This document shows, piece after piece, positions 5,116 to 21,234 of a stretch of 33,834 nt of DNA. How positions within the stretch are numbered: position 1 is the stretch's first letter; each line of letters starts with the position of its first letter. Under the pieces are notes generated by a model. It made no database searches. It had not been told where the DNA came from and was given only the letters and a program-made list of their open reading frames with translations. The stretch covers positions 1-33,834 of the forward strand of contig JAXDKH010000365.1 in the NCBI GenBank assembly GCA_034667185.1. The letters are read 5' to 3'. Source of the DNA: Chloroflexia bacterium (GTDB lineage Bacteria; Chloroflexota; Chloroflexia; QHBQ01; JADMIH01). Both the position numbers and the translations under genes were made by a program.

Positions 5116-5389
5116 GATGAAGATGTTACAGGCGTACTGCGTTCTTGCTTCTTTCTACCATTTGGTCTCGTAGCCTGTGAACGACCCTGAGTCCCGCAAT
5201 ACGCTCGTTGCTTGTACCACTCGGATGCATATGGACCAACTCCGAAGGCACCTACAGCCTCAGAAACATGCGCTAGAGAACAACCTCGCACCGGCGGGCG
5301 GGGTGACCTGGCAGCGCATTGCTGTGCCTTCGAGCGAGCCCGTGTCCTACACGAGGCTGGCTCCGCTGAGTTCGTCGGGTGCGTTCAAC

Positions 5390-7954
5390 ATGACGGCCCC
5401 CGCGCTGGCCTATCGCCGCAACACGGGCAGTACGCTCCGCGAGCGCATGCGGTTGGTCCTGGTCCTGTCTGCCACCCTGCTCTACATCGTGCTCCTTTCG
5501 TACGTGCTCTCGCTCAGCAGCAGTTCGGCCAGGCCCTCGGTGGGCCTCACGGCGCAGCGCGACACCGCAGGTGCATGGCGGGTGACCTCGCTCGTACCGG
5601 GTGGCTTGAGCTACGACAGTGAAGTGCGCCTGGGCGATATGGTTGTGGCGGCTTACGATGCCACCGGCAACGCGCTGAACCTGGGTGCGCTGCCCGCCGG
5701 GTCGGACAATTTCTCTTCGGTCTATGAACTGGCGGTCCGTTCAGGGGGCGACCCGGAAGGCAGGTTGGTCCGGATCAGCACCGCCAACCAGCGTCCCGAC
5801 ACTGCACTCCAGCGGTGGGGCTATGCGGCGCTCGGCCTCATCTTCATAGCGGTAGGGGGCGCGGTGTTCGTCAAGGCCCGGCAGCGTGATGCCGCCAGGG
5901 CATTCTATCTCTTCTGCCTCACCACTGCGGTAGCCCTGGCCCTCGCTTCGGCCATGTACCTGCGCATAGATTGGCTGCAGTCAATGCTTTTCATCACGCT
6001 TGCGGCCTGGGCCGGCTCCTTTGCGATCTTCTTCTTCAAGTTCCCGGTGTGCGTCGGCAAATCCAAGCGAGACCATTACTTCCTCCTCGCGTCCGTGGCC
6101 CTGGGTGCCCTGTTCATCATCGCCGGTTACTTGTGGGTGCTGGCAGGGAATTACGGCGACTACGAGACGGTGAGGATGCTCACCTTGATCTACGTGAGCG
6201 CCTGCGTGGCTTCCGGCCTTGGTACGCTCCTTAGATCCTTGGTGGGCGAGCGCTCCCCCGAAGTCCGGCAGCAACTGTTCCTGTTGCTTGGTGGCACTGC
6301 CATCGCGGTTGGCCCCGCCCTGTTGCTGGACCTTCTTCCGCACATTCTCATAGACAGGGCCATTGTGAGCATAGACATGACGGTGCTCTCAATGGGTTTC
6401 CTGCCCCTGGCCTTTGCATACGCCATTACCCAGCACCAGTTGCTCGGCATACGCAGCCTGGTGCGGCGTAGCGTGGTCTACGTCATAATGGGCTTCAACG
6501 TGCTGGTGCTCTTCGCCGTGGCTGCCGCCGTAGTCAGCGCCCTCTTGCCGCAGGGTTGGTGGGGCAGCGAGTTTGGGCTGCTCGGCTTCGGCCTCTTTGT
6601 CTTCCTGATTGCCCTGTCGTTCGGTTGGGCGCAGCACCGCGTCGAACGCCTGGTGGACCGCTATATTTACCACGACGCTTACGACTACAAAGAGGCGCTG
6701 TTGCAGTTTAGCGCCCAACTTGCCTCCGAGCAGGACCTGAAGGTGCTTGCCGACCAGCTTGTGGAGCGCACCTGCCGCCTGATGAACCTCACCTGCGGCA
6801 TACTTTTGCTGTCCTCCCAGCCGCAAGAGGCCCCGCAGGCGGAAAGGCTGGCTTCTTCGTCCGGGCGCGACTTCCCCGACGCCGAGACAGAGTACGCCCA
6901 TGCGTTTACCTCCCGCGTAGGGACTGACATGGGTGGCAGAGACCGCACGCAGCCGCTGACGGAAGGCGACCTTTACCTGGAGTTGTATGCTAAGCACGGA
7001 GCCCTTGCCGAAACACTCTTAGAGGGATTGCGCGCCGAACTGTCCAGTCAAGGCATAGTGCTGCGCGAACTTGACAGCACCGCACAGATGGTATTCCTGG
7101 ACGGCGATTCGCAGATGGGCAAGCCCGAATTGCGAACGTCCTTCCTTGACGAAGACCCTTCAGACCTCGATACTGTGCGTTCTTTCCTGGGTGTGCCTCT
7201 GTGGACCCGTTCCTACTTCATAGGAGTGCTCTGCCTGGGCGGCAAGAAGACCGGCGAGCGCTTTACCCAGGACGACATCTCGCTTTTGAGCACGCTGGGC
7301 AGCCAGGCGGCCCTCGCCATCTATAACGCGCAACTGTACGAGGCCCGCGAGCAGGCACTGCTCGATACGATAACGGCCCTGGCTCACGCCATCGAGGCTA
7401 AAGACACCTACACGATCAACCACTGCGAGAACATCACCGACCGGGCGGTGGTGCTGGCCCAGGCGCTATCGCTACCGAGGCAGGACGTGGAGAACATCCG
7501 CCTTGGCTCGATACTGCACGACGTAGGCAAAATTGGCATACCCGACGCCATCCTCAATAAGCCCTCCAAGTTGACCGACGAGGAGTACGAGATCATCAAG
7601 CAGCACGCGCAGATCGGTGCGCGCATCGTGCAGTCGGTGGGGGCATTGCAGGGTGTCGTGCCTATCGTGCGGCACCACCAGGAGCGATTCGATGGCCGGG
7701 GCTATCCCGACGGGTTGGTGGGCGAGGCGATACCAGTGGGCGCGCGAATCATCGCGGTGGTAGATGCATATGGGGCTATGACCGAAGACCGCGTATACCG
7801 TAAGGCGCTGGGGCACGCGAAGGCGCTCGATGAGCTACGTCGCAACGCAGGCACCCAGTTCGACCCGCACGTAGTCAACACCTTCATCCGCATTCTGAAG
7901 GAGCAGCCTGAGCTTGCCGAAATCCACTTAGAAGACCTGGTAGGTTTGCATTAG
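5390..7954 (+). CDS. Membrane sensor: TM + PDZ-like extracellular domain + multi-TM region (ComP-like) + GAF + HD-GYP phosphodiesterase
   Basis: WRVTSLVPGGLSYDSEVRLGDMVV (PDZ-like), ~8-9 hydrophobic helices, GAF end GVLCLGGKKTGERFTQDDISLLSTLGSQAALAIYNAQLY, LHDVGKIG and HHQERFDGRGYP. The ORF is open from 5177; the true start is uncertain (5390 or 5447 plausible). Confidence 0.85.
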   Translation: MTAPALAYRRNTGSTLRERMRLVLVLSATLLYIVLLSYVLSLSSSSARPSVGLTAQRDTAGAWRVTSLVPGGLSYDSEVRLGDMVVAAYDATGNALNLGALPAGSDNFSSVYELAVRSGGDPEGRLVRISTANQRPDTALQRWGYAALGLIFIAVGGAVFVKARQRDAARAFYLFCLTTAVALALASAMYLRIDWLQSMLFITLAAWAGSFAIFFFKFPVCVGKSKRDHYFLLASVALGALFIIAGYLWVLAGNYGDYETVRMLTLIYVSACVASGLGTLLRSLVGERSPEVRQQLFLLLGGTAIAVGPALLLDLLPHILIDRAIVSIDMTVLSMGFLPLAFAYAITQHQLLGIRSLVRRSVVYVIMGFNVLVLFAVAAAVVSALLPQGWWGSEFGLLGFGLFVFLIALSFGWAQHRVERLVDRYIYHDAYDYKEALLQFSAQLASEQDLKVLADQLVERTCRLMNLTCGILLLSSQPQEAPQAERLASSSGRDFPDAETEYAHAFTSRVGTDMGGRDRTQPLTEGDLYLELYAKHGALAETLLEGLRAELSSQGIVLRELDSTAQMVFLDGDSQMGKPELRTSFLDEDPSDLDTVRSFLGVPLWTRSYFIGVLCLGGKKTGERFTQDDISLLSTLGSQAALAIYNAQLYEAREQALLDTITALAHAIEAKDTYTINHCENITDRAVVLAQALSLPRQDVENIRLGSILHDVGKIGIPDAILNKPSKLTDEEYEIIKQHAQIGARIVQSVGALQGVVPIVRHHQERFDGRGYPDGLVGEAIPVGARIIAVVDAYGAMTEDRVYRKALGHAKALDELRRNAGTQFDPHVVNTFIRILKEQPELAEIHLEDLVGLH

Positions 7955-7995
7955 TCAGTAACTGTTCTTCGGTCCAGCAGATATTACGTGAGGTC

Positions 7996-8030
7996 GCCCG
8001 GTAGGGGAAAGTCCTACCGGGCTTTTGCTT
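7996..8030 (+). terminator. Intrinsic terminator after the HD-GYP gene
   Basis: GCCCGGTAGGG-gaaag-TCCTACCGGGC followed by TTTTGCTT. Confidence 0.8.
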
Positions 8031-8124
8031 GCCTGGACTCGTCGCGCAGAGTCAAATGTCGCATGTGCACCGTACTTCATAAATGCGACTCTACGTAGAT
8101 TTACGTAAATCGTGGAATAGCGCC

Positions 8125-8217
8125 TAGTACTCTGGTCCTACCTATTGTATTGACATAGTACTTTTGGTATACTCACCCCGTCGGAGATGGCTAGTACTTG
8201 CTAGTACCAAAGTACCA
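8125..8217 (+). promoter_or_regulatory. Promoter of peptide gene 1 with three TAGTAC-N4-GTACTA-like boxes
   Basis: TTGTAT (8145)-17 bp-TATACT (8168) with extended TG. Boxes at 8125-8140, 8156-8171 and 8202-8217, plus an extra TAGTAC at 8192. Confidence 0.55.
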
Positions 8218-8399
8218 TGTTATATGGTGGGTATTCTGTACTGGTCGAGGTAAGGTGCTGCAGGGAACAGTCGGGGTTCAGTAGCACAAGAGGAGCACCG
8301 GGTAACTGCCCGGAAGTGCCTATGCAGGGGCACATATTGGCGTTGTAAGCAGGCCACGAACCAGGAGCCATCGTCACACCACGGAGGAGCATAGCAACC

Positions 8400-8615
8400 A
8401 TGAACCTGAATATCCTAGAAAAACTCACCCGCCACGCCATCAAGGGTAACAACGTAGTAGGCATTAGCAACGAGATGCTGAAGAAGGGCTTCCTCAGCCC
8501 CGCCGAGCATCGCTCGGTGCAGTCCCTCTCGTGGCAGATCGCCGCCAACCTCAACGCTACCACGGGTGGCGCGGTCGCTGCACCCCCCACTACCGTTTAC
8601 CGGGTGTGGATCTAA
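8400..8615 (+). CDS. 71-aa putative ComX-like pheromone/RiPP precursor 1 (C-terminal YRVWI)
   Basis: Strong SD GGAGGAG, own terminator, and 38/71 ungapped identity to the paralog at 8855 support coding status. Function is inferred from the penultimate Trp and the neighbouring genes. Confidence 0.8.
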   Translation: MNLNILEKLTRHAIKGNNVVGISNEMLKKGFLSPAEHRSVQSLSWQIAANLNATTGGAVAAPPTTVYRVWI

Positions 8616-8643
8616 GCCCTAGATTTAGAACTTTTCTTCTTCT

Positions 8644-8676
8644 GCAAAAAGACCGGCACTAAGCCGGTCTTTTTGC
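8644..8676. terminator. Bidirectional intrinsic terminator after peptide 1
   Basis: GCAAAAAGACCGGC-actaa-GCCGGTCTTTTTGC. Confidence 0.85.
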
Positions 8677-8854
8677 GTCCTCCGGTATGATATCGCGTCC
8701 CAGACAGCGCCCCCAGCCCCTGCATTTATCAACATTTGTCTACAAATTCGGGTTCTTTATGCCTGTAGCCCTTACTTTCCGCCGGAACTGTCGTTATACG
8801 AGGCATGCACGGGCTATGTCACTGTGGCACTCCCGAACAGGAGGTTATTAGCTG

Positions 8855-9070
8855 ATGAACCTGAACGTACTTGAGAAACTCGCACGTGAGATAATGAAGG
8901 GCAACGACGTCTCGCTAACGAGCCAGGCACTGTTGAACAGGGCAGTACTATCGCCCATCGAGCACCGGTCGCTGCAATCCCTCTCCTGGCAGATCGCCGC
9001 CAGCGCACGTCACACCCCCAGCGGCAACACCACAGTCGCTTCGATCAGCACCTACCGCGTCTGGATTTAG
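8855..9070 (+). CDS. 71-aa putative ComX-like pheromone/RiPP precursor 2 (C-terminal YRVWI)
   Basis: SD AGGAGG at ~8839. Paralog of 8400-8615 with conserved MNLNxLEKL, LSPxEHRSxQSLSWQIAA and YRVWI. Confidence 0.8.
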   Translation: MNLNVLEKLAREIMKGNDVSLTSQALLNRAVLSPIEHRSLQSLSWQIAASARHTPSGNTTVASISTYRVWI

Positions 9071-9156
9071 ACGACCCTGCCCGATTGTCCTCGCTCGCCC
9101 ATGTACCTGATACAGGAGAGAGCCGGGGCCTTACGTTTGTGACCATGAGCTTCCGT

Positions 9157-11583
9157 CTATCCCTGCCGTCCGTCGGCATCTTCGCTGAGTAGCGGTGCGC
9201 GCTTCAGCACGTTCTGCAAGTAGTAGCTGAGCACCAGGAACAGACCGCCTACCCCCAGGAAGATCAACACGCGCCAGATGGCCTCCAGGCCCACGAGGTC
9301 GATCAGGAACAGCTTGGCGACCAGCAGCACCAGGGTCCCGGCTCCCGCGTACAGCAGAGGTGCGTTGCGGTTGAACCTGATGCCGGCCAGAAGTAGCACG
9401 CACGCCCAGACTCCCCAGGCTATCGTCACGAAGGCGTTCCCGTTCGGTAGGGTCTCCAACTCGCGCCATAGTAAGGCGAGCAAGGCCAGGTGTGCCGCGC
9501 CTCTGTACAGCAGTTGTACCCCTCGTTCCTTGTGCAGGAAAGATACTCCGGCTACCAGGAGTATTACGGCCACGTCAACCAGGTTGGGGAGGTTGAAGAA
9601 TACCGGCCCCGGAGCTGCTCCGTAAAGCAGCCTGAGCATAAGCTGCAGGGCGACCAGGCCCAAAATGATGTGCGAGGGCACAACCGTCTCAGCACGGTTG
9701 GTCCGCCCCGGTGCCCACCAGTACACGGCCTGCAACAGGGTGCCGTAGACCGCCCACCCCAGAATGATGTAGCTCCACCCGTCGGGGCGACCTGCTAGCT
9801 CACGCCATATCGTGCCGAGCACGACTAGGTGTACCATGCCCCGGTATAGGACGCTGGTGCCCTGGGGCCGCACTACAAAGGAAGCCGCCAGGGACAGCCC
9901 CAATACTGTCAGGTAGGTGAGTGCTTGCGCATTCAGGAACGGGAGTTCGTCCAGCCTGGCGGTCCCGAATATCGGGCCTACTATATCTCGCCACAACTGA
10001 GAGACCACCCACAGGGCCACGCAGCCCGATAGTATGTGGCCCATGACCGATGTGCCCCTGTCCGAGAGCCTGCGAGCAACGAAGTGCAGGGCCGCTGCCT
10101 CCACCGCGAGCGCCAGCATCAGCACGTTGCCATGTATCAGTTGCACCAGCGCCAGTGTCAGCAACAGCACGCCCACAACCGCGTGGGTGTATGCCAGTCG
10201 TTCTTGGGAACGCCGCAAGCTCCAGGCGACGGCTCCGAACAGCACGGCCCCGGCCAGCGTCGCCGCACCCAACACCTCGCTCGGTACCGTGGCTTCCCAC
10301 AGCCTCCACGAGAAGCCAAGAGTGGTCAGCGGAGCCAGCACCACGAGCGCGTGCACCTGCGATTCCAGGAGGTTCCTGAGGTCCTTGTCGTGGACGTAGT
10401 CGAGCGACGACGAAGGCCACCGCTCCGGGTTGATTGCCCGCAATGTTTCGCGTACCAATGGCACTACCCAGAAGACCAGCAGGCAGAAGATTGCCCCGGC
10501 TTGCAAAGCCCAATCACCGTCAGGCCCTGCACCGAACCTCTTTGCGCCCTCAAGCCCTGCCAGCAGCACCAGCCAGGTGCCCACGAAGGTGGTCCACAGC
10601 AGGCCGCGCCAGCCTCGGAAGAAATAGACTGCAACAGCCCCGGCGGCCACCAGGCAGGTATAGGTAACCAGGCCCGTGACGCCGCCCGACCTGTCGCCCA
10701 GCACGAAGGGAGTTGCCAGCCCACCCGCTACGCCCACGATGGACAGCAGCGACTGGTTGTGTCCCAGAGCGAGCACGAAGGCCAGCACCGTCACCGCCAC
10801 CATAAAGGAGAATGCCAGCTCGTAGGCCACCAGGTGGAAGAGCTGGTAGGCCGCGTATCCCGTAATGTAGAAGGTGGCAATGCTCCCGCCCAGCAAGATG
10901 TACTTCAAAGCCTGACGGTGCGCACCCATCAGCGAGCCTATGACGAGCAACGCAGCCCCGGCCACGAAGCCCATCGCGACGCGCACCCACTCGGTGAGCC
11001 ACCCCTGGTCCACCGAGTACTTGAACAGGAAGCCGATGCCGAGCAGGAAGAGCACGATGCCGACGCGGCTGAGCCAGAACTCCCCGCTTTTGAGGATGTC
11101 GGGCGGCTTACGGGCAGTGGTGCTCGCGCTCGGGGCGCTGCTTTTTGGCCGGGCGTCCGTGGAGCTTACCCACGAGGCGGAAGAGCCATATACCTGAGAA
11201 GTCGCGGTATTGGATTCATTGAGACCCGGCAGGGGCATGTTGCCCAGCGCGGCTATGCTCTCTGGAACAGCTATTTGCCGACCCTGCCCGGACGGCTGCA
11301 TGGACCTGCCGCACCACATGCAATAGGGGTTAGTGGGTGGGTTGCCGCCCCGGCAGTGCGGGCAGAACACCTCTGTGGGAGGGGCCGGTGGTGCAGGTAT
11401 CAGGTTTGTGGTGGCAGGTACAGCCCGCCCAGCGACCTGTAGGTCCTCGGTTGGTGTAAGAGTGGCGGGCCGTATTGTGGCTACCGCCCCTTCGAGTCGC
11501 TCCACCTGGCCGCGCAACTCGCCTACCATCTGCTCTAGCCTGCCGATTCGTTCGTCCAGGGGCACACGTCCCGTCTCTTCCAT
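9157..11583 (-). CDS. DUF2339-family polytopic membrane protein with N-terminal coiled coil and zinc ribbon
   Basis: WLSRVGIVLFLLGIGFLFKYS..GWL and C-terminal KLFLIDL..LEAIWRVLIFLGVG are typical of DUF2339. CPHC..NP....YCMWCG zinc ribbon. SD AGGAGG. Confidence 0.85.
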   Translation of the reverse strand: MEETGRVPLDERIGRLEQMVGELRGQVERLEGAVATIRPATLTPTEDLQVAGRAVPATTNLIPAPPAPPTEVFCPHCRGGNPPTNPYCMWCGRSMQPSGQGRQIAVPESIAALGNMPLPGLNESNTATSQVYGSSASWVSSTDARPKSSAPSASTTARKPPDILKSGEFWLSRVGIVLFLLGIGFLFKYSVDQGWLTEWVRVAMGFVAGAALLVIGSLMGAHRQALKYILLGGSIATFYITGYAAYQLFHLVAYELAFSFMVAVTVLAFVLALGHNQSLLSIVGVAGGLATPFVLGDRSGGVTGLVTYTCLVAAGAVAVYFFRGWRGLLWTTFVGTWLVLLAGLEGAKRFGAGPDGDWALQAGAIFCLLVFWVVPLVRETLRAINPERWPSSSLDYVHDKDLRNLLESQVHALVVLAPLTTLGFSWRLWEATVPSEVLGAATLAGAVLFGAVAWSLRRSQERLAYTHAVVGVLLLTLALVQLIHGNVLMLALAVEAAALHFVARRLSDRGTSVMGHILSGCVALWVVSQLWRDIVGPIFGTARLDELPFLNAQALTYLTVLGLSLAASFVVRPQGTSVLYRGMVHLVVLGTIWRELAGRPDGWSYIILGWAVYGTLLQAVYWWAPGRTNRAETVVPSHIILGLVALQLMLRLLYGAAPGPVFFNLPNLVDVAVILLVAGVSFLHKERGVQLLYRGAAHLALLALLWRELETLPNGNAFVTIAWGVWACVLLLAGIRFNRNAPLLYAGAGTLVLLVAKLFLIDLVGLEAIWRVLIFLGVGGLFLVLSYYLQNVLKRAPLLSEDADGRQG

Positions 11584-11994: not shown

Positions 11995-13092
11995 GTGAGT
12001 TCCGAGTCCGAAATCCGGCAGTTCCTCGAAGCCACCGAAGAGCACCTGACGGAGGCCCTGCTCGAATACGCCTCCATAATGCCGATGTCGCTCATCAACA
12101 TCGGCAAGCTGGCCCTCTCTGCGCCGGGCAAGGTGTTGAGCGCGGTGCCTCGGATGCAACAAGCGGGTGGCACCTTGCCTTCGCCCTTACCCAGGTGGCC
12201 CCTTTACGTGATAGAGGCGTACAGGGCAGGGGCGTCTTACCCGGAAGATACCTGGCGGGACGCGCTGCCTGGCGCGGTGGCTGTGGAGATCGCCATGTCC
12301 GCTGCCGACTTGCTGGACGAACTGACCGACGACGATCCCAGTCCGGTTGCCGAGCAGTACGGTCCCGGCCAGGCCCTCAACACCGCCAACCTGATGCTGG
12401 TCATGGCTCAACAAGTGTTGCTCAAAGCGGCGCAATCGAGCACCAAGGACCTCTATCTTGCTGCCCTCGCCGCGCTCCAGGAGATGCTGGTGGAGGCCGC
12501 CGTGGGCCAGCACCTCGATATGCTTTACGATGGGCTGCCACCTGGTGTAGTGACATTGGAGATGAGCGCGGACGTGACGGCGAAGAAGGCGGGCGCTCTA
12601 ATAGCGGGGGCGTGGCGTGTGGGGGCCGTGCTCTCAGGTGCGGAAGCGCCCGTGGTTGACCTGCTGACCCGCCTGGGCCGCGAGACGGGGGGCTTCGCCC
12701 AACTCTCAAACGACCTGGAAGCGGTGCTGCCTCTTGACATAAGTTCATCGGACGTGTCTCTCATGGATGAAGGTGGAACGCCTGGGCTCAAGACCGACCT
12801 GCGCCTGCGCAAGCGCACCATGCCCATCGTATTTACCCTGCGCGAGGAAGGTGAAGCGCCCAACCCCCTGCAACGGGCTTTCAGCGACCCCACCTACGCT
12901 GCGAGCGTGGACGAGGACACCCTGCGCCGGGCCATAGTTGAAGCGGGGGGCGTGCAGTTCGTGCAGCTGGTAATGGAAGTGCACGCACAGACTATCGTGC
13001 AACTGCTGGCCGAGCTTGAGACGCTCAGGCCGGGCGCTACCGAGGCCCTGGGTTACCTGTTGCCGGTGCAGGCTGCGGAGGTAGAAGACTAG
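11995..13092 (+). CDS. Isoprenyl-diphosphate-synthase-fold protein, ComQ-like (putative peptide tryptophan prenyltransferase)
   Basis: FARM-like AADLLDELTDDD without the following RRG, GQHLD, KKAGAL, pseudo-SARM QLSNDLEA, KTDLRLRKRTMPIVF. GTG start with SD GAGGTGA. Confidence 0.7.
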   Translation: MSSESEIRQFLEATEEHLTEALLEYASIMPMSLINIGKLALSAPGKVLSAVPRMQQAGGTLPSPLPRWPLYVIEAYRAGASYPEDTWRDALPGAVAVEIAMSAADLLDELTDDDPSPVAEQYGPGQALNTANLMLVMAQQVLLKAAQSSTKDLYLAALAALQEMLVEAAVGQHLDMLYDGLPPGVVTLEMSADVTAKKAGALIAGAWRVGAVLSGAEAPVVDLLTRLGRETGGFAQLSNDLEAVLPLDISSSDVSLMDEGGTPGLKTDLRLRKRTMPIVFTLREEGEAPNPLQRAFSDPTYAASVDEDTLRRAIVEAGGVQFVQLVMEVHAQTIVQLLAELETLRPGATEALGYLLPVQAAEVED

Positions 13093-13435: not shown

Positions 13436-13678
13436 ATGCTGGACGGTATCTGCCCAAAATGTGGATCAGCTGAGATCTATACGGATGTCCACGTAGAAGG
13501 AAGGTTCAGCACCCCCAGTATGAACCTGGTTATGGCGAAGGGCGGCATACTGGCTCCTGCCCTCGTTGGGCACGACAACTACTTGTGCGGTGCGTACGGA
13601 TACCTGGAGAGCTATGTAACCGAGCCCCAGGACGTGCAGGTGCTCGTGGAGAACTGGACCAGGCTGGAGGCTCGCTAA
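13436..13678 (+). CDS. Small zinc-ribbon-like hypothetical protein
   Basis: CPKCGS ... YLCGAYGYLESY. SD AGGAGG at 13419. Ends 6 bp before the DHFR-like gene. Confidence 0.65.
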   Translation: MLDGICPKCGSAEIYTDVHVEGRFSTPSMNLVMAKGGILAPALVGHDNYLCGAYGYLESYVTEPQDVQVLVENWTRLEAR

Positions 13679-13684
13679 CGCAGC

Positions 13685-14215
13685 ATGAAAGTAATCCTCA
13701 TGGCCGCCGTCACGGTAGACGGCAAGATCGCCCGGCACGAGCACCACTTCGTGGATTGGTCCTCGAAGGAGGACAAGAAGCTCTTCATGCAGACCTCAAA
13801 GCGCGCGGGCGTAGTTATCCTGGGCAACAACACCTACGAGACTTTCCCCGCGCCCCTGCCCGGCAGGCTCCATATCGTGCTCACCACCCACGTCGCGGGC
13901 AAGCCACACAAGCCGGGCGAGATAGAGTTCACCGACCGCACGCCCGCCGAGATAGTGGCCGGCCTGGAGGCTCGCGGCTACACAGAAGCGGTGCTCACGG
14001 GTGGCGCGCAGGTGAACGCCCTCTTCCTGGCCGCAAATATGGTAGACGAAATCTGGTTGACCGTGGAGCCTCACATCTTCGGCGTGGGTCTCGACCTGTT
14101 CCGCGGCGTGCCGTTCGACCGCCGCGCCACCCTCTTGGAGGTACGGCAGCTAAACGAGGGAGGATCGGTGCTGCTCAGGTACGGACTCGACACCGGTGCC
14201 TCTGCTGAAAGCTAG
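13685..14215 (+). CDS. Dihydrofolate reductase family protein
   Basis: AAVTVDGKIA, W-SSKED, ILGNNTYETF, PLPGR, GGAQV, VDEIWLTVEPHIFG. Confidence 0.85.
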   Translation: MKVILMAAVTVDGKIARHEHHFVDWSSKEDKKLFMQTSKRAGVVILGNNTYETFPAPLPGRLHIVLTTHVAGKPHKPGEIEFTDRTPAEIVAGLEARGYTEAVLTGGAQVNALFLAANMVDEIWLTVEPHIFGVGLDLFRGVPFDRRATLLEVRQLNEGGSVLLRYGLDTGASAES

Positions 14216-15308: not shown

Positions 15309-16268
15309 TTATGTGTTGGCGTTTATTAGTTCCAAGAACATCGTATAGAAGCGCTTCCAGTCTGGACCGTCCTGCCCTACAACCTGAGAAAATTCGAAAA
15401 TTGCTGTTGATGTACGGGTCTCTGTCTCAAAAGTAGCACGGGGTAATCCGCCCATCTGAATAATAGTCCACCGATGTTGGTAACCTTCCTGCTGGGCCTT
15501 AATCTGTGACTTTTCTGCTTCGCCTGCGCGGTTATGCGCATTTGAGAAGTCGCTACCGCCCTTGATTTCGATAGCAATCAGTGGTTTAGACGATGAGCCA
15601 ACACCCTGGTTGAGCCTTATGTCCGGGTCACTACCAGCCACTAATTCATAAGGTTGGCCGTTTGGCAGCACAAACCTGAGTTGGGTGTCTTCCACCTCGA
15701 ATTCAATCCAATCCTCGTTAAGAAGTCTGCGTAGAACTCTAAAAGCCTGCAGGGCAGCCTCACGTCCAATAACAGTATTCCTCCGGCCTTGTAGAGTTGG
15801 CCCTAATGTCAGCAGAGCTAGGTCGCTCAAGTCCCTGTTGTCGAACTGGCCCATGGCTTCTACCAGCATTGTGAGAGGCTCGATTAGACGAGCGCAGAAC
15901 GCCTCCATTTGGGGCTTCAGCCGTGCTGATAACACTCCACTCTGCTCAGCCTTTGCCCATGCACCATAGCCATACTTGAGAGTGAAGTCCTTTGTGATTG
16001 AAAGACCAAGTAACATCCTATAGTAGCCAATCAATGGTGGAGAGTATTCTATTATTGCAGGTACCGGAAAGACACGTTCACCACGCAAGCCGAGTGCTGC
16101 TACATGACTTAACGTATCAGCAGGTACAAGACGGTCTAGCTCCTCATTTAAGCGCGCCACACCAACGGCGGACACTGCGGCACTGAGAGCAGGATGAAGT
16201 TGTAAGCGCCGGGCTTCAAGCAGCGACAGGTACAACCCAATACCTTTGTCTGCTGGTAAGGGTTTCAT
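15309..16268 (-). CDS. Type II restriction endonuclease, XcyI/XmaI/Cfr9I-like (predicted CCCGGG)
   Basis: GLRGERVFPVP, YYRMLLG, DLALLTLG, DPDI ... IAIEIKGG (PD-(D/E)xK), SNAHNRAGEAEKS. ATG 16268 lies 1 nt after the MTase stop. Confidence 0.8.
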   Translation of the reverse strand: MKPLPADKGIGLYLSLLEARRLQLHPALSAAVSAVGVARLNEELDRLVPADTLSHVAALGLRGERVFPVPAIIEYSPPLIGYYRMLLGLSITKDFTLKYGYGAWAKAEQSGVLSARLKPQMEAFCARLIEPLTMLVEAMGQFDNRDLSDLALLTLGPTLQGRRNTVIGREAALQAFRVLRRLLNEDWIEFEVEDTQLRFVLPNGQPYELVAGSDPDIRLNQGVGSSSKPLIAIEIKGGSDFSNAHNRAGEAEKSQIKAQQEGYQHRWTIIQMGGLPRATFETETRTSTAIFEFSQVVGQDGPDWKRFYTMFLELINANT

Positions 16269-16269
16269 G

Positions 16270-17289
16270 TTAGCTGATTGCAATTAACGGTTCATCCCCC
16301 GCCTGCCTGTTCACCTGTTGGTGCTCGATAAGTGGTTGTATTATTTCGGCTGCACTGACTACTTGTGCCTCCTCCACTACTTCAACCTCATAGATTGGGC
16401 GGTCTAGTCTTGCCAACTGCCGAATACGGTGGCGAGCTATTGCTGAGTATTCGGGGTTTATCTCTATGCCGAGAAATGGCCGTCCCAGTTCCACTGCAAC
16501 TACCGCAACCGTGCCGGAACCTAAGAATGGGTCCAATACGACATCCCCCGGCCTCGTGGATAGCTTCACACACGGTTCAACTAGCTTCGGAGGGAACGTA
16601 GCGAAATGCACATCCATAAGAGGGTAGGTGTTGATATCCCAGACCGAGCGTACGTTACGGTTATTTACTTCGCGCACCGCTTGGTTATCGTAGTAGTAAT
16701 TTTCGGACTTTGTAAGGAAAAACAGATATTCATGCGAACGGGTAGGTCGATCCTTTACGCTTTCCGGTTGCGCGTTTGGCTTACGCCATATTACGTCCGA
16801 CCTTAAATACCAACCTGCTTGCTGTAGAGCAAACGCCAGTCGCCAAGGGATTCCAGTAAGTTCTTTTGATTTTAAACCATTTGGTGTAGGTGGCCTGGTA
16901 CTCATAGCGCGGGCGCGGTTCTTCTTGTCGGGCGCACGCCACGTTCTACCGCCCGATGTGTAGCTATCACCAATATTCAGCCACATCGAGCCATCGGGCC
17001 GCAACACGCGGCGTACCTGCTCGAACACAGTAACTAACGCCATAATATAATCATCCACGTTTGGTTCTAGACCGATCTGTCCATCAATGGCGTAGTCACG
17101 TAACGACCAATAAGGTGGAGATGTAACAACTGCTTGGATACAGTTGGCTGGTAGATTTGCCAGTACCTTGAGGGCATCGCCGGTAACTACGCGCGAGTCG
17201 AAGACTTGGTCTCCACCAGGAGCAGTTTGAACGAGGGGCGGCGTAACAGAAGCATCAGACGAGACGTAATGCACAGTGTGGACTTGCAC
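16270..17289 (-). CDS. Beta-class amino DNA methyltransferase (likely N4-cytosine), cognate MTase
   Basis: TSPPYW (motif IV) precedes DPFLGSGT (motif I); IWRKPN..PESVKDRP, HFATFP. GTG start with SD GGAGG. Confidence 0.9.
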   Translation of the reverse strand: MQVHTVHYVSSDASVTPPLVQTAPGGDQVFDSRVVTGDALKVLANLPANCIQAVVTSPPYWSLRDYAIDGQIGLEPNVDDYIMALVTVFEQVRRVLRPDGSMWLNIGDSYTSGGRTWRAPDKKNRARAMSTRPPTPNGLKSKELTGIPWRLAFALQQAGWYLRSDVIWRKPNAQPESVKDRPTRSHEYLFFLTKSENYYYDNQAVREVNNRNVRSVWDINTYPLMDVHFATFPPKLVEPCVKLSTRPGDVVLDPFLGSGTVAVVAVELGRPFLGIEINPEYSAIARHRIRQLARLDRPIYEVEVVEEAQVVSAAEIIQPLIEHQQVNRQAGDEPLIAIS

Positions 17290-17970: not shown

Positions 17971-20900
17971 GTGAAACGATTAATCATAGCTCTGTCGGCG
18001 CTTGTACTGGCGCTGATTGTGATGCGCGTGCAGGCAGGCGAGCCCATGAGCGCGAGTGGGGCCGCGGCACACACCAAGTCGGTCGTGCCTCAGATCCCGC
18101 AGCTTTTCCCCGAGGTGCGGCAGCCCGTCTACTTCGACGAATCTCCGCCCCTGCGCGACATAGTGCCCGTTCTAGAGCCCAACCCCAACGGGCCGACCTC
18201 CAGGCGCGAGGTGGAGCGCGAGAACGGTTTGAAGCCGAGCACCCATACACCCAACTTCGTGAGCATCGACCCGGTGGTGCAGACCTTCTTTGGCCCGCTT
18301 GCCATACCCACACCCATTATTACCTTCAAAGGCTACACCCAGCAGGACAACGCCTCCACCGGGCCCCTCATCAACTGGCCGCCCGATACCGAGGGAGACG
18401 TGGGCCTCAACCACTACTTCCAGTGGGATAATACGGGCTTCAAGATCTTCGACAAGGCCGGTAATCTCCTCTACGGCCCCGCCAACGGCAACTCTCTCTT
18501 TACCGGCATGACCGGTCCCGGTGGGGCTGAATGCGCGGGGACCGACAGTGGCGACCCGATTGTGCTCTATGACTCTATGGCCGACCGTTGGCTGGCGAGC
18601 CAGTTTACGACGGCCCCCGGTGCAGCGGCAGGCCCCACCTACGAGTGCATAGCCATCTCCAAGACCGGCGACCCGACCGGCCCCTACTGGCGCTACGCCT
18701 TCCAGGCAAGCCCAACCGCCTCCCCCAGTCGCTTCGAGGACTACCCACACTTCGGCGTGTGGCCCGACGCCTATTACATGACCACAAATGAGTTCGACGC
18801 CACGACCAATGGCATCGATCTTGTGGGGGCGGGCAATTTCGCTTTCGAGCGAGCAAAGATGATCGCGGGCGACCAGACCGCGAAGATGGTCTACTTCCAC
18901 CTGGACCCACCATACTCCGGCCTGCTTCCCTCCGACCTGGACGGCGCTACGCTTCCTCCGGTGGGCAGCCCCAACTACTTCGTGCAGGTTGATGACGATT
19001 TCGGCAATCCGCCCGCCGACCAGCTTTCCATCTTCAAGTTCCACGTCGATTGGACCACCGTCCTGAGTTCCACCTTTACCGGCCCCGTCACCACTCCGGT
19101 AGCGCCCTTCGACTCCGATTTCTGCGACGCCGATCGCGAAGCCTGCATCCCCCAGCCCGGCACAACCCAGAAGCTGGAGGTTATAAGCGACCGGCTGATG
19201 TACAGGCTGGCTTATCGCAACTTCAACGATCACGAGTCGCTGGTGGTGAACCACACGGTGGATGCCGACGGCACGGGGCACGCGGGCGTGCGCTGGTATG
19301 AGCTGCGCAGCCCTGGTACCTCACCCACTGTCTACCAGCAGGGCACCTTCGCTCCCGACGCGAGCGACCGCTGGATGGGCAGCGCCGCTATGGACAAGGA
19401 CGGCGATATAGCCCTGGGCTACAGCGTGTCGAACGCCACCGACGTCTTCCCTAGCATACGCTACACAGGGAGGCTGGCAGGTGACCCCCTGAACCAGATG
19501 AGCCTGGGTGAAGGTACGCTCTATCCCGGCTATGGGTCGCAGACCGCCAACGCGCGTTGGGGCGACTACAGCATGTTAGGCATCGACCCGTCGGACGACT
19601 GTAGCTTCTGGTATACGCAAGAGTACTACGGGACCACCGGCCAGTACTGGTCGACTCGCATTGGCAAGTTCAGGTTCGCAAGCTGCGGAGCCGACACGAT
19701 AGCCACCGAGACCCCTATACCTGCCCAGGACCCCTGCACCCTGCCCGGCGTCAAAGTGGTCACCGACGGCACGGGCGACGCCCTGGACACCCTGGGTGGT
19801 ACCGGCACCGAGCAGGCGCAAAAGTACGACATCGAGTATATCTCGGTGGCCGAACCCTACACAGCCACGGGACCCGATAACCTGGCGTTTACCATGAAGG
19901 TGACAAGCCTTGCCGGGCCTGAGAACGACCCCTCCACCAGCCCCAACACGACGTGGCGTATCTACTTCACCAGCCCTATGTCGGGCACTCTACGCTTCGT
20001 GGACATGCGCACTGACAACAGCGGCAACGTGACCTTTAAGTACGGCACCACCGTTGGCACCACTAACACGACGGTTGGCAATGCCGACGCGGGCGTGTAC
20101 GGCCTTGACGGCACGATCCGGATTATCGTTGCCACCTCCAAGCTGGGCGGTCTTACCCCGGGCCAGACTATCTCCGCCATCCATGGCAGGGTGATCTTCA
20201 CAACCTCCTCGCCCGGCGCTTCATACGATGTGGAGGACGCCAACTACCCTGAACCGGACAAGAGCGCCACGTACACGCTCGTGGGCAACGCCTCCTGCCA
20301 GGTGGTTGTGGGCGCTACCTCGACCGCCATACCCAGCAGCACGACCACGTCCACATCTACCTCTACGTCGCTTGCGAGCGCCACCTCCACCAGCATACCG
20401 GGCAGCACGTCAACCCCTACAGGTACGAATACGGGGACGGCTACTAGCGTTCCGGCGGGTACCTCCACGGGCACGGCCACCCGCACCGCCACCCGCACAC
20501 CCACTTCCATCAGCACGGGCACAGTGGCAGCGAGCAGCACCCCTAACGCCACAGCCACCGCCTGTACTATCCAGTTCGCTGACGTACCATCTTCGGGCGA
20601 GGGTTCTACCTTCTACGCGTTCGTGCGCTGCCTTGCTTGCCGGGGCATCGTGGGCGGCTACCCGTGCGGCGGTCCTGGAGAGGACTGCAACGACAACAAC
20701 CAACCGTACTACAGGCCGAGCGCTAACGTCACCCGCGGGCAGCTATCGAAGATAGTCGCCAACTCGGCGGGCTTGAATGACGACATAGCAGAAGGCCAGC
20801 AGCAGTTCGCCGACGTTGAACCGGGCGACCCCTTCTACCTCTACGTGGAGCGTCTAGCCCAGACCGGGGCCATATCGGGTTACCCCTGCGGCGGTACGGG

Positions 20901-21234
20901 TGAAGATTGTGACGACCTGGAGAGGCCGTACTTCCGCCCCAACAACCCCGCTACGAGAGGGCAAATATCTAAGATCGTGTCCATAGCGGCCGGCTTCGAT
21001 GAAGAGGTATCGGAGGACCAGCAGACGTTCACGGATGTGCCCACCGACAGCCCGTTCTGGGTGTACATCGAACGGCTGGCGAGCAGAGATGTGATCTCCG
21101 GCTACGGCGAGGCGGCGAAGTGCCCGACAGGTACTCCCTGCTTCCGCTACAACGATCTGACCACCAGGGGCCAGATGGCGAAGATCGCCTCCAACGCCTT
21201 CTTCCCAGGCTGCGAGACGCCTGTGAGGAGGTAA
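17971..21234 (+). CDS. Large secreted surface protein with Thr/Ser-rich linker and three Cys-containing SLH-like repeats
   Basis: Signal peptide, beta-rich body (PPDT.GDVG, GDPIVLYD, DYPHFG, RWGDYS), three F(A/T)DV...TRGQ repeats. GTG start with SD AGGAGG. Confidence 0.85.
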   Translation: MKRLIIALSALVLALIVMRVQAGEPMSASGAAAHTKSVVPQIPQLFPEVRQPVYFDESPPLRDIVPVLEPNPNGPTSRREVERENGLKPSTHTPNFVSIDPVVQTFFGPLAIPTPIITFKGYTQQDNASTGPLINWPPDTEGDVGLNHYFQWDNTGFKIFDKAGNLLYGPANGNSLFTGMTGPGGAECAGTDSGDPIVLYDSMADRWLASQFTTAPGAAAGPTYECIAISKTGDPTGPYWRYAFQASPTASPSRFEDYPHFGVWPDAYYMTTNEFDATTNGIDLVGAGNFAFERAKMIAGDQTAKMVYFHLDPPYSGLLPSDLDGATLPPVGSPNYFVQVDDDFGNPPADQLSIFKFHVDWTTVLSSTFTGPVTTPVAPFDSDFCDADREACIPQPGTTQKLEVISDRLMYRLAYRNFNDHESLVVNHTVDADGTGHAGVRWYELRSPGTSPTVYQQGTFAPDASDRWMGSAAMDKDGDIALGYSVSNATDVFPSIRYTGRLAGDPLNQMSLGEGTLYPGYGSQTANARWGDYSMLGIDPSDDCSFWYTQEYYGTTGQYWSTRIGKFRFASCGADTIATETPIPAQDPCTLPGVKVVTDGTGDALDTLGGTGTEQAQKYDIEYISVAEPYTATGPDNLAFTMKVTSLAGPENDPSTSPNTTWRIYFTSPMSGTLRFVDMRTDNSGNVTFKYGTTVGTTNTTVGNADAGVYGLDGTIRIIVATSKLGGLTPGQTISAIHGRVIFTTSSPGASYDVEDANYPEPDKSATYTLVGNASCQVVVGATSTAIPSSTTTSTSTSTSLASATSTSIPGSTSTPTGTNTGTATSVPAGTSTGTATRTATRTPTSISTGTVAASSTPNATATACTIQFADVPSSGEGSTFYAFVRCLACRGIVGGYPCGGPGEDCNDNNQPYYRPSANVTRGQLSKIVANSAGLNDDIAEGQQQFADVEPGDPFYLYVERLAQTGAISGYPCGGTGEDCDDLERPYFRPNNPATRGQISKIVSIAAGFDEEVSEDQQTFTDVPTDSPFWVYIERLASRDVISGYGEAAKCPTGTPCFRYNDLTTRGQMAKIASNAFFPGCETPVRR

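Follow-up and report, generated by a model that had tools for sequence, protein, structure and literature searches.

The 33,834-nt stretch of DNA analyzed here (contig JAXDKH010000365.1 of assembly GCA_034667185.1, hereafter the window) carries two paralogous genes, pepA and pepB, whose sequences indicate that they most likely encode precursors of tryptophan-prenylated signal peptides similar to the ComX pheromone. The same window encodes a candidate prenyltransferase, which we call Q, and a candidate receptor, R. It belongs to a metagenome-assembled genome (81% complete) of an uncultured soil genus of the Chloroflexia, and its DNA is present in three DNA sequencing datasets, from soil and biocrust metagenomes; the same search listed no RNA dataset, which does not bear on expression in either direction.

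Taken as a whole, we consider it probable that this is a ComX/StheX-type system with twin precursors, in which Q prenylates Trp70 and R senses the products of both genes as a shared receptor. pepA and pepB would be old paralogous precursors of a modified peptide, whose N-terminal ~55 residues would form a small helical leader, similar to those of the NHLP clan, that docks on Q. The enzyme would prenylate the second-last residue, Trp70, by attaching a geranyl or farnesyl moiety to its indole, and some protease would then free a short lipopeptide from the C-terminus, with the sequence ...YRV-W(prenyl)-I at its end; both the prenylation and the release are proposed by homology to an enzyme-peptide pair tested in vitro. 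The freed peptide would be sensed by R, encoded just upstream, through a PDZ-like loop and about ten helices that read the free prenylated C-terminus. R would in turn switch its cytoplasmic GAF-HD-GYP phosphodiesterase, such that cell density sets the level of cyclic di-GMP (c-di-GMP); we infer this sensing step and its coupling to c-di-GMP from gene linkage and domain architecture. Both precursors would feed one receptor, and would differ mainly in how they are regulated and in the mature peptide's N-terminal portion.

Peptide pheromones carrying a prenylated Trp have long been considered limited to Bacillus and other Firmicutes. The accessible text of a 2014 census places ComQXPA-like loci only in Firmicutes, and describes the pherotype pattern for ComX systems (Dogsa 2014). 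A single enzyme-peptide pair of a cultured Chloroflexi species, Sphaerobacter thermophilus, was characterized in vitro in 2026: the ComQ homolog StheQ farnesylates Fmoc-Trp, and it prenylates StheX, a peptide of 69 aa, at its second-last residue, W68 (bioRxiv 10.64898/2026.08.29.745113). The authors state the biological role of StheX as unknown, and the main text of the preprint names no receptor, kinase, HD-GYP or c-di-GMP. The peptide-enzyme pair of the window is another member of the ComQ/StheQ group; the core idea of a first-pass annotation of this DNA was right, and is no longer new. What looks new is the fusion of a ComP-like sensor to c-di-GMP enzymes, the long retention of the twins, and the presence of species-specific tails throughout a genus. 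The same chemistry is probably used across this whole uncultured soil genus, with the species-specific tails forming a pherotype-like pattern.

Peptide family and candidate prenyltransferase

A word-indexed search recovered 19 peptide homologs of 71-73 aa, all unannotated, and the family is present in 22 of the 25 other genomes of the genus. Our genome-wide tallies of peptide, Q, and R take in four unpublished genomes (G022, G023, G033, G153), and no conclusion rests solely on them. Outside the genus, a search of 35 genomes of the class gave one doubtful match (E 0.0016, two in-frame stops). The C-terminal Trp, singled out in the first-pass annotation, is conserved among these homologs: M1, E7, R11, E36, and W70 are invariant in all 27 aligned genus peptides, and Trp is second-last in 31 of the 32 distinct peptides recovered from the fetched loci of the genus. 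The sole exception is in G003, where frameshifts or assembly errors are likely because the neighboring receptor and enzyme genes are split too. At this locus (L028, G003:C8:482000-501999, in a 20-contig genome), receptor, peptide, and prenyltransferase all appear split or frameshifted, and it is either decayed or affected by indel errors in the assembly. In the genus alignment, residues 1-49 are well conserved and the ~20 that follow vary in both sequence and length across species.

The same conservation was found in a profile search of 1.84 billion representative proteins (E<=0.001), which returned no more than 71 clusters, so that the family is small; five of the clusters, long repetitive proteins, were set aside. 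Trp is second-last in 58 of the 66 short representatives and lies within the last four residues in 60, and most of the remaining ones look truncated or read through. This count is not fully independent, because the search profile contains the Trp column; matches confined to profile positions 1-55 (e.g., P0029, P0043) likewise end in W-x. One further copy in the genus is an orphan: a third peptide gene of G012 (L036, C47, 9785-10003) encodes 72 aa ending in RIWF and has a gene for a short-chain dehydrogenase as its neighbor, with the enzyme and receptor genes far away.

The leader is related to known ones. Among 34 family members, ten match the NHLP-clan model NF038399 (best 2e-10) and nine match TIGR04509; pepA and pepB themselves gave no match to the NHLP-clan models. 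Profile-profile comparison (hhalign) of the genus leaders with StheX-type peptides returned a probability of 94.6% and an E of 7e-8 over leader residues 1-49. The AlphaFold model of pepA contains helices at 3-15, 19-29, 34-40, and 43-57, with a predicted local distance difference test (pLDDT) score of 73-78, and residues 56-71 fall below 50. StheX is ordered over residues 1-59 and disordered over 60-69 (pLDDT <50; bioRxiv 10.64898/2026.08.29.745113).

Q contains the all-alpha trans-isoprenyl diphosphate synthase domain (Pfam polyprenyl_synt, 52.1 bits, 6.8e-14, cut-off 27), and yet remains far below the cut-off of every NCBIfam isoprenyl-diphosphate-synthase model (best 83.5 bits vs 450). A separate canonical polyprenyl synthase (PF00348, 187.6 bits) is encoded in the genome on contig C371. 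A sequence search of the PDB with Q matched only ordinary polyprenyl and geranylgeranyl diphosphate synthases (best 3nf2, 1.7e-11), the copy searched containing no ComQ-family entry. In a class-wide search with the Q alignment, the best matches outside the genus are proteins of ~300 aa, each preceded by an open reading frame (ORF) of 65-76 aa that ends in W-x or WW-x. The G115 protein carries all 13 StheQ residues named in the preprint at identical numbers, and its 69-aa neighbor has I62, G63, T64, G66, W67, and W68, matching the StheX of the preprint; we used this enzyme and peptide as stand-ins for StheQ and StheX. Q is 32% identical to this StheQ-like protein over 260 aa (E 3e-24), and identical to it at 10 of the 13 named positions.

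The shared positions include two motifs of StheQ. The first Asp-rich motif of Q (D105, D108, E109, D112, D114) has the same spacing as D82, D85, E86, D89, and D91 of StheQ, which bind Mg2+ and the prenyl donor (bioRxiv 10.64898/2026.08.29.745113); in 12 orthologs of Q, the Asps of this motif are invariant and E109 nearly so. D175 and K198 correspond to StheQ D153 and K174 and are conserved. Like ComQ and StheQ, Q has Asn for the first Asp of the second Asp-rich motif. In this pseudo-second motif, Q236, N239, and D240 are the equivalents of StheQ Q212, N215, and D216, and are invariant both in the 12 orthologs and in all 11 sequences of a cross-family alignment; N215, D216, and D219 are required for StheQ activity (bioRxiv 10.64898/2026.08.29.745113). 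We regard Q, on these sequence grounds, as a StheQ relative and a candidate Trp prenyltransferase. Enzymes of this type are of interest as peptide-lipidation biocatalysts, and the genus offers ~20 natural enzyme-substrate pairs that vary around the Trp. Anaerolineae loci L058-L064, whose proteins share 22-26% identity with Q, have no ORF of the peptide family at E<=10, and we took them as ordinary synthases; the contig scan that gave them used patterns too specific to reach beyond the genus.

The first-pass annotation asked whether homologs of the peptides sit beside ComQ-like genes. Such adjacency holds across the family: peptide and Q are neighbors in 13 of the 14 genus loci examined, the 14th being the orphan copy of G012, and the adjacency is also found in sister-family loci. 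In 10 of the 13, Q starts ~70-350 nt 3' of the peptide gene(s) on the same strand. It does not hold in the window itself, where Q lies 2.9 kb 3' of pepB, beyond an opposite-strand gene for a DUF2339 protein; the same gene intervenes in the two other loci of the 13, in G007 and G009.

Docking of the leader on the enzyme, which the first-pass annotation had proposed to probe by co-folding, is supported by the model. Q and pepA, each given with its own alignment, reached an ipSAE (interaction prediction score from aligned errors) of 0.79, compared with 0.43 for the best control, and the co-fold passed its controls; 58 of 80 solved complexes attain the mark used, as do 2 of 110 mismatched pairs. 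Between runs, at least 66% of contacts coincide, and the partner pLDDT is 68 or higher. The predicted interface joins Q 188-192, 280-284, and 317-336 to peptide segments 1-14, with the invariant E7 and R11, and 34-46, with the invariant E36. It also brackets S191 and V323 of Q, the equivalents of StheQ A167 and T267, two residues that line the peptide-binding pocket and whose mutants bind StheX more weakly (bioRxiv 10.64898/2026.08.29.745113). This predicted docking of the pepA leader on Q would account for the conservation of residues 1-49. Together with the conserved Trp, the linkage to Q, and the homology to StheQ, the co-fold supports what had first been read from the twins alone, namely the leader-and-core architecture of a ribosomally synthesized and post-translationally modified peptide (RiPP) with Trp70 as the putative modification site.

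StheQ/StheX and the system of the window come from the same class-level group and share a ~70-aa peptide with a helical leader, a disordered tail, and a second-last Trp. Their enzymes share the D..DE..D.D first motif and the Q..ND pseudo-second motif, their leaders are homologous by profile comparison, and the co-fold places the leader-binding region on the same helices. They differ in the length of the enzyme (365 aa for Q vs 300), in its modest 32% identity, in the Ala of Q at the third pseudo-motif Asp, and in the number of precursor genes (two in the window vs one). Gene order differs as well, being receptor-peptide-(insert)-enzyme in the window and peptide-enzyme-receptor at the StheQ-like locus of G115, whose receptor has an extra GAF-GGDEF module that R does not have.

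In two loci of a sister clade, genes for a double methyltransferase and for a B12-binding radical-SAM protein of 491 aa lie just 5' of the StheX-like gene on the same strand (L095, 11182-14521; L098, 11486-15189), which suggests that the peptide is tailored further there. No such tailoring genes were found in the window.

Putative twin precursors and their regulation

Both of the 71-aa ORFs called by the first-pass annotation are present (Table 1), and its comparison of the two was reproduced. BLASTP aligns pepA and pepB without gaps (E=1e-26) at 38 identical residues of 71, distributed as 31 of 49 over residues 1-49, 2 of 17 over 50-66, and 5 of 5 over 67-71. The Shine-Dalgarno sites reported for the two genes (GGAGGAG and AGGAGG) each end 10 nt 5' of the ATG, and a terminator indeed separates the genes, as a hairpin with a folding energy (dG) of -25.7 kcal/mol and a z of -7.9 that none of 200 shuffles equaled. 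A simple terminator scan missed this hairpin because the stem absorbs the T run, and found a single site, 3' of R, at the equivalent of which hairpin-forming sequence is also present in the alignment of G007 and G009. An Rfam AgrB match on the hairpin between the twins (27.1 bits, gathering score 40) was below threshold and taken as chance.

Residues 50-66 had been described as hypervariable and possibly a spacer. They do vary between the twin copies and between species, but within the orthologs of each copy they are conserved; because purifying selection acts on this segment within each paralogue, it is not a free spacer. Counts of substitutions by segment (Nei-Gojobori) place the orthologs of both copies under purifying selection. 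Between G000 and G007, the leader of the A copy shows 10.0 non-synonymous changes in 113.5 sites vs 13.0 synonymous in 33.5, and its segment 50-66 shows 5.0 in 35.2 vs 8.0 in 15.8. Between pepA and pepB, synonymous sites are saturated throughout, which makes the duplication old. The saturation extends to the tail (3.0 of 3.2 sites), where there are 0 non-synonymous changes per 11.8 sites; the identity of the two YRVWI ends is therefore due to selection and not to recent gene conversion. Adjacent double copies occur in 8 of the 23 family-positive genomes of the genus (G000, G004, G007, G009, G012, G019, G022, G023), and the A/B pair of the window is common to G007, G009, and the public record L037; pepB is paired with pepA in G022 and G023 as well. 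Precursor duplicates can evidently persist for long times.

The two copies differ in what precedes them. Four of the nine TAGTAC sites of the window are packed into 83 nt 5' of pepA, and this block is kept in G007 and G009. TAGTAC occurs within 400 nt 5' of 19 of 26 genus peptide genes, compared with a background of ~0.1 per 400 nt, and in most of the species it precedes the first peptide gene; the copies of pepB type in G007, G009, and the window have none 5' of them. A conserved near-palindrome, CTACGTAGATTTACGTAA, lies near the cluster at 8091-8108. The cluster is a candidate binding site for some regulator. The upstream regions of pepA and pepB gave no meaningful alignment, and the two genes appear to be differently regulated. 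A sigma-70 scan of 7800-9400 found 0 sites vs 0.8 expected, a result that is uninformative for this phylum, and an Rfam scan of 7900-9200 (E<=1) found no riboswitch.

The twins might instead represent two signal specificities, that is, two pherotypes per cell, with residues 50-66 forming part of each mature signal and the receptor discriminating between them. Such a reading would fit a segment that is conserved among the orthologs of each paralogue and differs between paralogues at 15 of its 17 positions, a pair that is kept in at least five genomes, and genes with differing upstream regions and a terminator between them. In addition, pepA might be cleaved at its GG (56-57), which would give a 14-residue product unlike that of pepB. 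We nevertheless judge two specificities rather unlikely: selection keeps the last five residues identical, the genome encodes a single Q and a single full-length R ortholog, and known mature peptides are short, at 6-10 residues for ComX (bioRxiv 10.64898/2026.08.29.745113) and 8 for PalX in the accessible text of its description (PMC10853753), so that the two products would differ at few positions. We tentatively favor a shared receptor over two private channels because there is one enzyme, one receptor, and one selected YRVWI tail; we favor two differently regulated precursors because the TAGTAC block precedes pepA-type and not pepB-type copies.

Candidate receptor and signal output

R has a first transmembrane helix (93-111), a PDZ-like extracytoplasmic loop (~112-213), about nine further transmembrane helices (214-484), a GAF domain, and an HD-GYP domain (Pfam HD_5, 3.4e-39 and 134.8 bits; GAF, 4.5e-9; HisKA_7TM, 1.8e-7). 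Its HD motif (781-782) and HHQERFDGRGYP (833-844; HHExxDGxGYP type) are intact, and it is a predicted c-di-GMP phosphodiesterase. The layout of the sensor appears ComP-like: in its accessible text, a modeling study of Bacillus amyloliquefaciens ComP (PMC9620489) gives this protein ten transmembrane helices, places a PDZ domain in its first extracellular loop, and proposes that ComX binds to that domain; R has about ten helices and a PDZ-like first loop. The loops of 10 of 16 R homologs match Pfam PDZ_6 (best 3.6e-7) and eight match PDZ; the loop of R itself was modeled by AlphaFold with a pLDDT of 77.7. A PDZ-type loop that binds free C-termini would fit a signal that is conserved at its last residues.

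The sensor is linked to the peptide-enzyme pair over a wide range of genomes. R lies directly 5' of the peptide gene in 10 of the 13 genus loci that hold peptide and Q, and the genome of the window encodes one Q and one full-length R ortholog. In other families the order is peptide, Q, R homolog, with 4-nt overlaps or gaps between Q and R (L095, L096, L100, L104). By comparison of coordinates, Q and an R homolog are neighbors on the same strand in at least 16 genomes that do not belong to the genus (G095, G096, G111, G115, G131, G145, G163, G173, G205, G209, G226, G235, G243, G253, G257, G283); in this tally, the contig ends at Q in G171 and G295, and the position of the Q match is not listed for G129. 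The pair is linked to a PDZ-loop sensor with multiple transmembrane helices across five families of the class. A functional link between the sensor and the pair is indicated because their adjacency survives a change of gene order and because the genes overlap; this is good evidence of such a link, not proof that R senses the peptide.

The output of this sensor varies. It is HD-GYP in the window and HD-GYP-GAF-GGDEF in L095, L100, and L103; in the StheQ/StheX clade, a ComP-like sensor is fused to HD-GYP plus GGDEF. A kinase output (HisKA_3/HATPase_c) follows the same PDZ-loop sensor in G096, as it does, with an added GAF, in G226. These two proteins, encoded beside the peptide-prenyltransferase pair at L101 (4753-7278, G096) and L133 (1432-3765, G226), look like kinase-output counterparts of the HD-GYP form. 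Within the genus, leaving aside the two nearest species, identity to the window is 44-58% for the sensor, 68-87% for the output, 49-66% for Q, and 73-77% for a flanking rhodanese. The fast divergence of the sensor is expected if signal, enzyme, and sensor co-diversify, although sensors often evolve fast in any case.

Several known systems share parts of this arrangement. In the accessible text of the PalQ study (PMC10853753), the precursor PalX of Paenibacillus alvei has an NHLP-type leader and a conserved C-terminal Trp, and is cut by cell lysate to an 8-residue core; PalP-PalX-PalQ has the order sensor, precursor, prenyltransferase, as in the genus of the window, and the study also used an AlphaFold complex. 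Unlike Q, PalQ clusters separately within the isoprene-synthase superfamily, acts on the terminal residue itself, and belongs to Firmicutes, and PalP is a histidine kinase, unlike the HD-GYP sensor described here (PMC10853753).

ComQXPA of Bacillus subtilis resembles our system in its prenylated-Trp pheromone, its enzyme of the isoprenyl diphosphate synthase fold, its hypervariable signal, and its fast-evolving enzyme and sensor. In ComX the Trp is internal, at the third or fourth position from the end, and to our knowledge its leader is not of the NHLP type. The ComQXPA output consists of the ComP kinase and ComA, encoded in a set of four co-directional genes. At our locus there is an HD-GYP protein with no linked response regulator; no ComP-type kinase or ComA-type regulator was found there, and the ComQXPA four-gene set is thus incomplete.

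Control of an HD-GYP c-di-GMP phosphodiesterase by a cell-density signal is known from the diffusible signal factor (DSF) of Xanthomonas (RpfC/RpfG). This fatty acid is perceived by a hybrid kinase, and the HD-GYP response regulator phosphorylated by the kinase is a protein of its own. In contrast, sensor and HD-GYP domain are one polypeptide in the window, and the signal would be a lipopeptide. We found no paper joining ComX-type peptides or ComQ to c-di-GMP or HD-GYP enzymes in the literature searched. Among the papers listed for the StheQ/StheX and PalQ/PalX pairs, those on prenylation were the two primary papers and one 2026 review.

Across five families, the peptide-enzyme pair travels with one type of sensor whose output is predicted to turn over c-di-GMP. 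A broader proposal, that Chloroflexia possess one-component quorum sensing of the ComX type, with a PDZ-loop ComP-like sensor fused to c-di-GMP enzymes and with twin inputs, seems to us quite possible, and we put it forward tentatively. If true, a peptide quorum signal would be wired directly to c-di-GMP, a second messenger for biofilm and motility decisions. The proposal would also supply a biological role for StheQ/StheX, as a hypothesis testable in a culturable organism, and would point to an evolutionary swap of output modules, in which a conserved pheromone sensor exchanged its kinase for enzymes of c-di-GMP turnover.

Several observations weigh against the signaling system proposed here. 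In Q, Ala243 occupies the position of StheQ D219, leaving the enzyme short of the third pseudo-motif Asp. Asp is found there in 10 of 12 orthologs and in all 10 sister-family proteins, and Ala only in the window and G007; this is a real caveat because D219A cost StheQ 83% of its activity (bioRxiv 10.64898/2026.08.29.745113). Two pocket residues also differ (S191 for A167, V323 for T267), and the co-fold does not confidently place the tail and Trp70 in the active site. In the window, Q cannot be co-transcribed with the peptides because an opposite-strand gene intervenes. The three genus genomes in which R is not next to the peptide gene have a single full-length R ortholog that is unlinked from the peptide-Q pair. 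Neither pepA nor pepB matches any Pfam or NCBIfam model, and the loop of R likewise has no Pfam match, PDZ included.

Structural matches of this loop in the PDB are weak (best E 0.01, TM-score 0.49-0.55). Those listed are almost all PDZ domains, of C-terminal processing proteases, DegS, DegP, and HtrA, with DegS, Prc, and CtpA giving the best matches (E 0.01-0.1, likewise weak). The DegS entries among them are bound to YQF or YRF peptides, whose free C-termini are recognized; such domains are periplasmic and linked to proteases, unlike the loop of R, and ligand binding by this loop is conjecture. Finally, no transporter or protease was found among the window genes near the locus, and Peptidase_C39 (PF03412) was not found in the genome, which at 81% completeness does not establish its absence.

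The peptides might instead be prenylated by Q without being diffusible signals. A lipidated 71-residue protein could stay uncleaved and tethered to the membrane, acting inside the cell, for example on the neighboring HD-GYP protein; or the product could be a secreted RiPP with antibiotic or surfactant activity, the HD-GYP gene being merely a conserved neighbor. In favor of this, no exporter or leader protease was found in the window, nor Peptidase_C39 in the genome. Residues 1-57 are moreover predicted to be a folded four-helix domain, in which several positions are conserved as strongly as the Trp, the role of StheX is stated as unknown by its authors (bioRxiv 10.64898/2026.08.29.745113), and the radical-SAM enzyme and methyltransferase upstream in some sister loci suggest natural-product-like tailoring. 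The conservation of the leader is, however, accounted for by its docking to Q, and the combination of a conserved leader, tails that are hypervariable across species, and a sensor half of R that diverges fastest is the pattern of ComX pherotypes. R also has an extracytoplasmic loop resembling a type of domain that binds free C-termini, and the cutting of PalX to a short core, as reported in the accessible text (PMC10853753), offers a precedent for release. We consider a non-signal role quite improbable, and prefer the sensed, released lipopeptide. That prenylation has nothing to do with the ORFs, which would encode small helical proteins (e.g., accessory regulators of the HD-GYP protein), and that Q is an ordinary isoprenoid enzyme, would agree with the missing family matches of pepA and pepB, the Pfam score of Q, and its distance from the peptides in the window genome, but is highly improbable given the scores of Q far below every NCBIfam synthase cut-off (83.5 vs 450 bits), its ComQ/StheQ-like Asn, the separate canonical synthase of the genome, the near-C-terminal Trp and peptide-Q adjacency found family-wide, and a co-fold that passed its controls.

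Locus layout and neighboring genes

The features of the locus are collected in Table 1.

Table 1. Position of the peptide system and associated elements in the window.
Feature	Position	Strand	Basis or description
R, candidate receptor	5177-7954	+	Pfam HD_5, GAF, HisKA_7TM; hydropathy; motifs
Terminator-like hairpin 3' of R	7996-8022	+	11-bp stem (8 GC pairs), then TTTT
TAGTAC cluster, four repeats, candidate operator/regulatory element	8125-8207	+	198-275 nt 5' of pepA
pepA, putative 71-aa precursor ending in YRVWI (Trp70)	8400-8615	+	ORF, BLASTP, alignment, AlphaFold, co-fold
Intrinsic terminator between pepA and pepB	8643-8677	+	15-bp hairpin with T run
pepB, putative paralogous 71-aa precursor, YRVWI tail, different 50-66 segment	8855-9070	+	ORF, alignment
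DUF2339 membrane protein gene (808 aa)	9157-11583	-	Pfam DUF2339, 1.4e-70
Q, candidate ComQ/StheQ-family tryptophan prenyltransferase (365 aa)	11995-13092	+	Pfam polyprenyl_synt; conserved residues

The DUF2339 gene was considered as a component of the system and rejected. Among the 14 genus loci examined, it stands at the peptide-Q junction only in the window, G007, and G009. It is read as an insertion and not as a component because its homologs sit elsewhere in the genome in four of the five other genus genomes searched; it is a lineage insertion, probably outside the peptide system. The encoded protein has a Cys-rich N-terminal segment.

Downstream of Q, the ORF at 13585-14208 (+) was likewise rejected as a conserved neighbor. 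It is a spurious Arg/Pro-rich frame, the longest ORF there, and the real gene under it encodes a DHFR/RibD_C protein of 176 aa (13685-14215, +). An XcyI-type restriction endonuclease and an N4/N6 DNA methylase are encoded at 15309-17289 (-), where G+C drops to 0.51 from ~0.61 around it; this is probably a horizontally acquired restriction-modification cassette. The 1087-aa product of the gene at 17971-21234 (+) carries an S-layer homology domain at its C-terminus, and homologs of its C-terminal part are found near the peptide locus in G018 and G012:C47.

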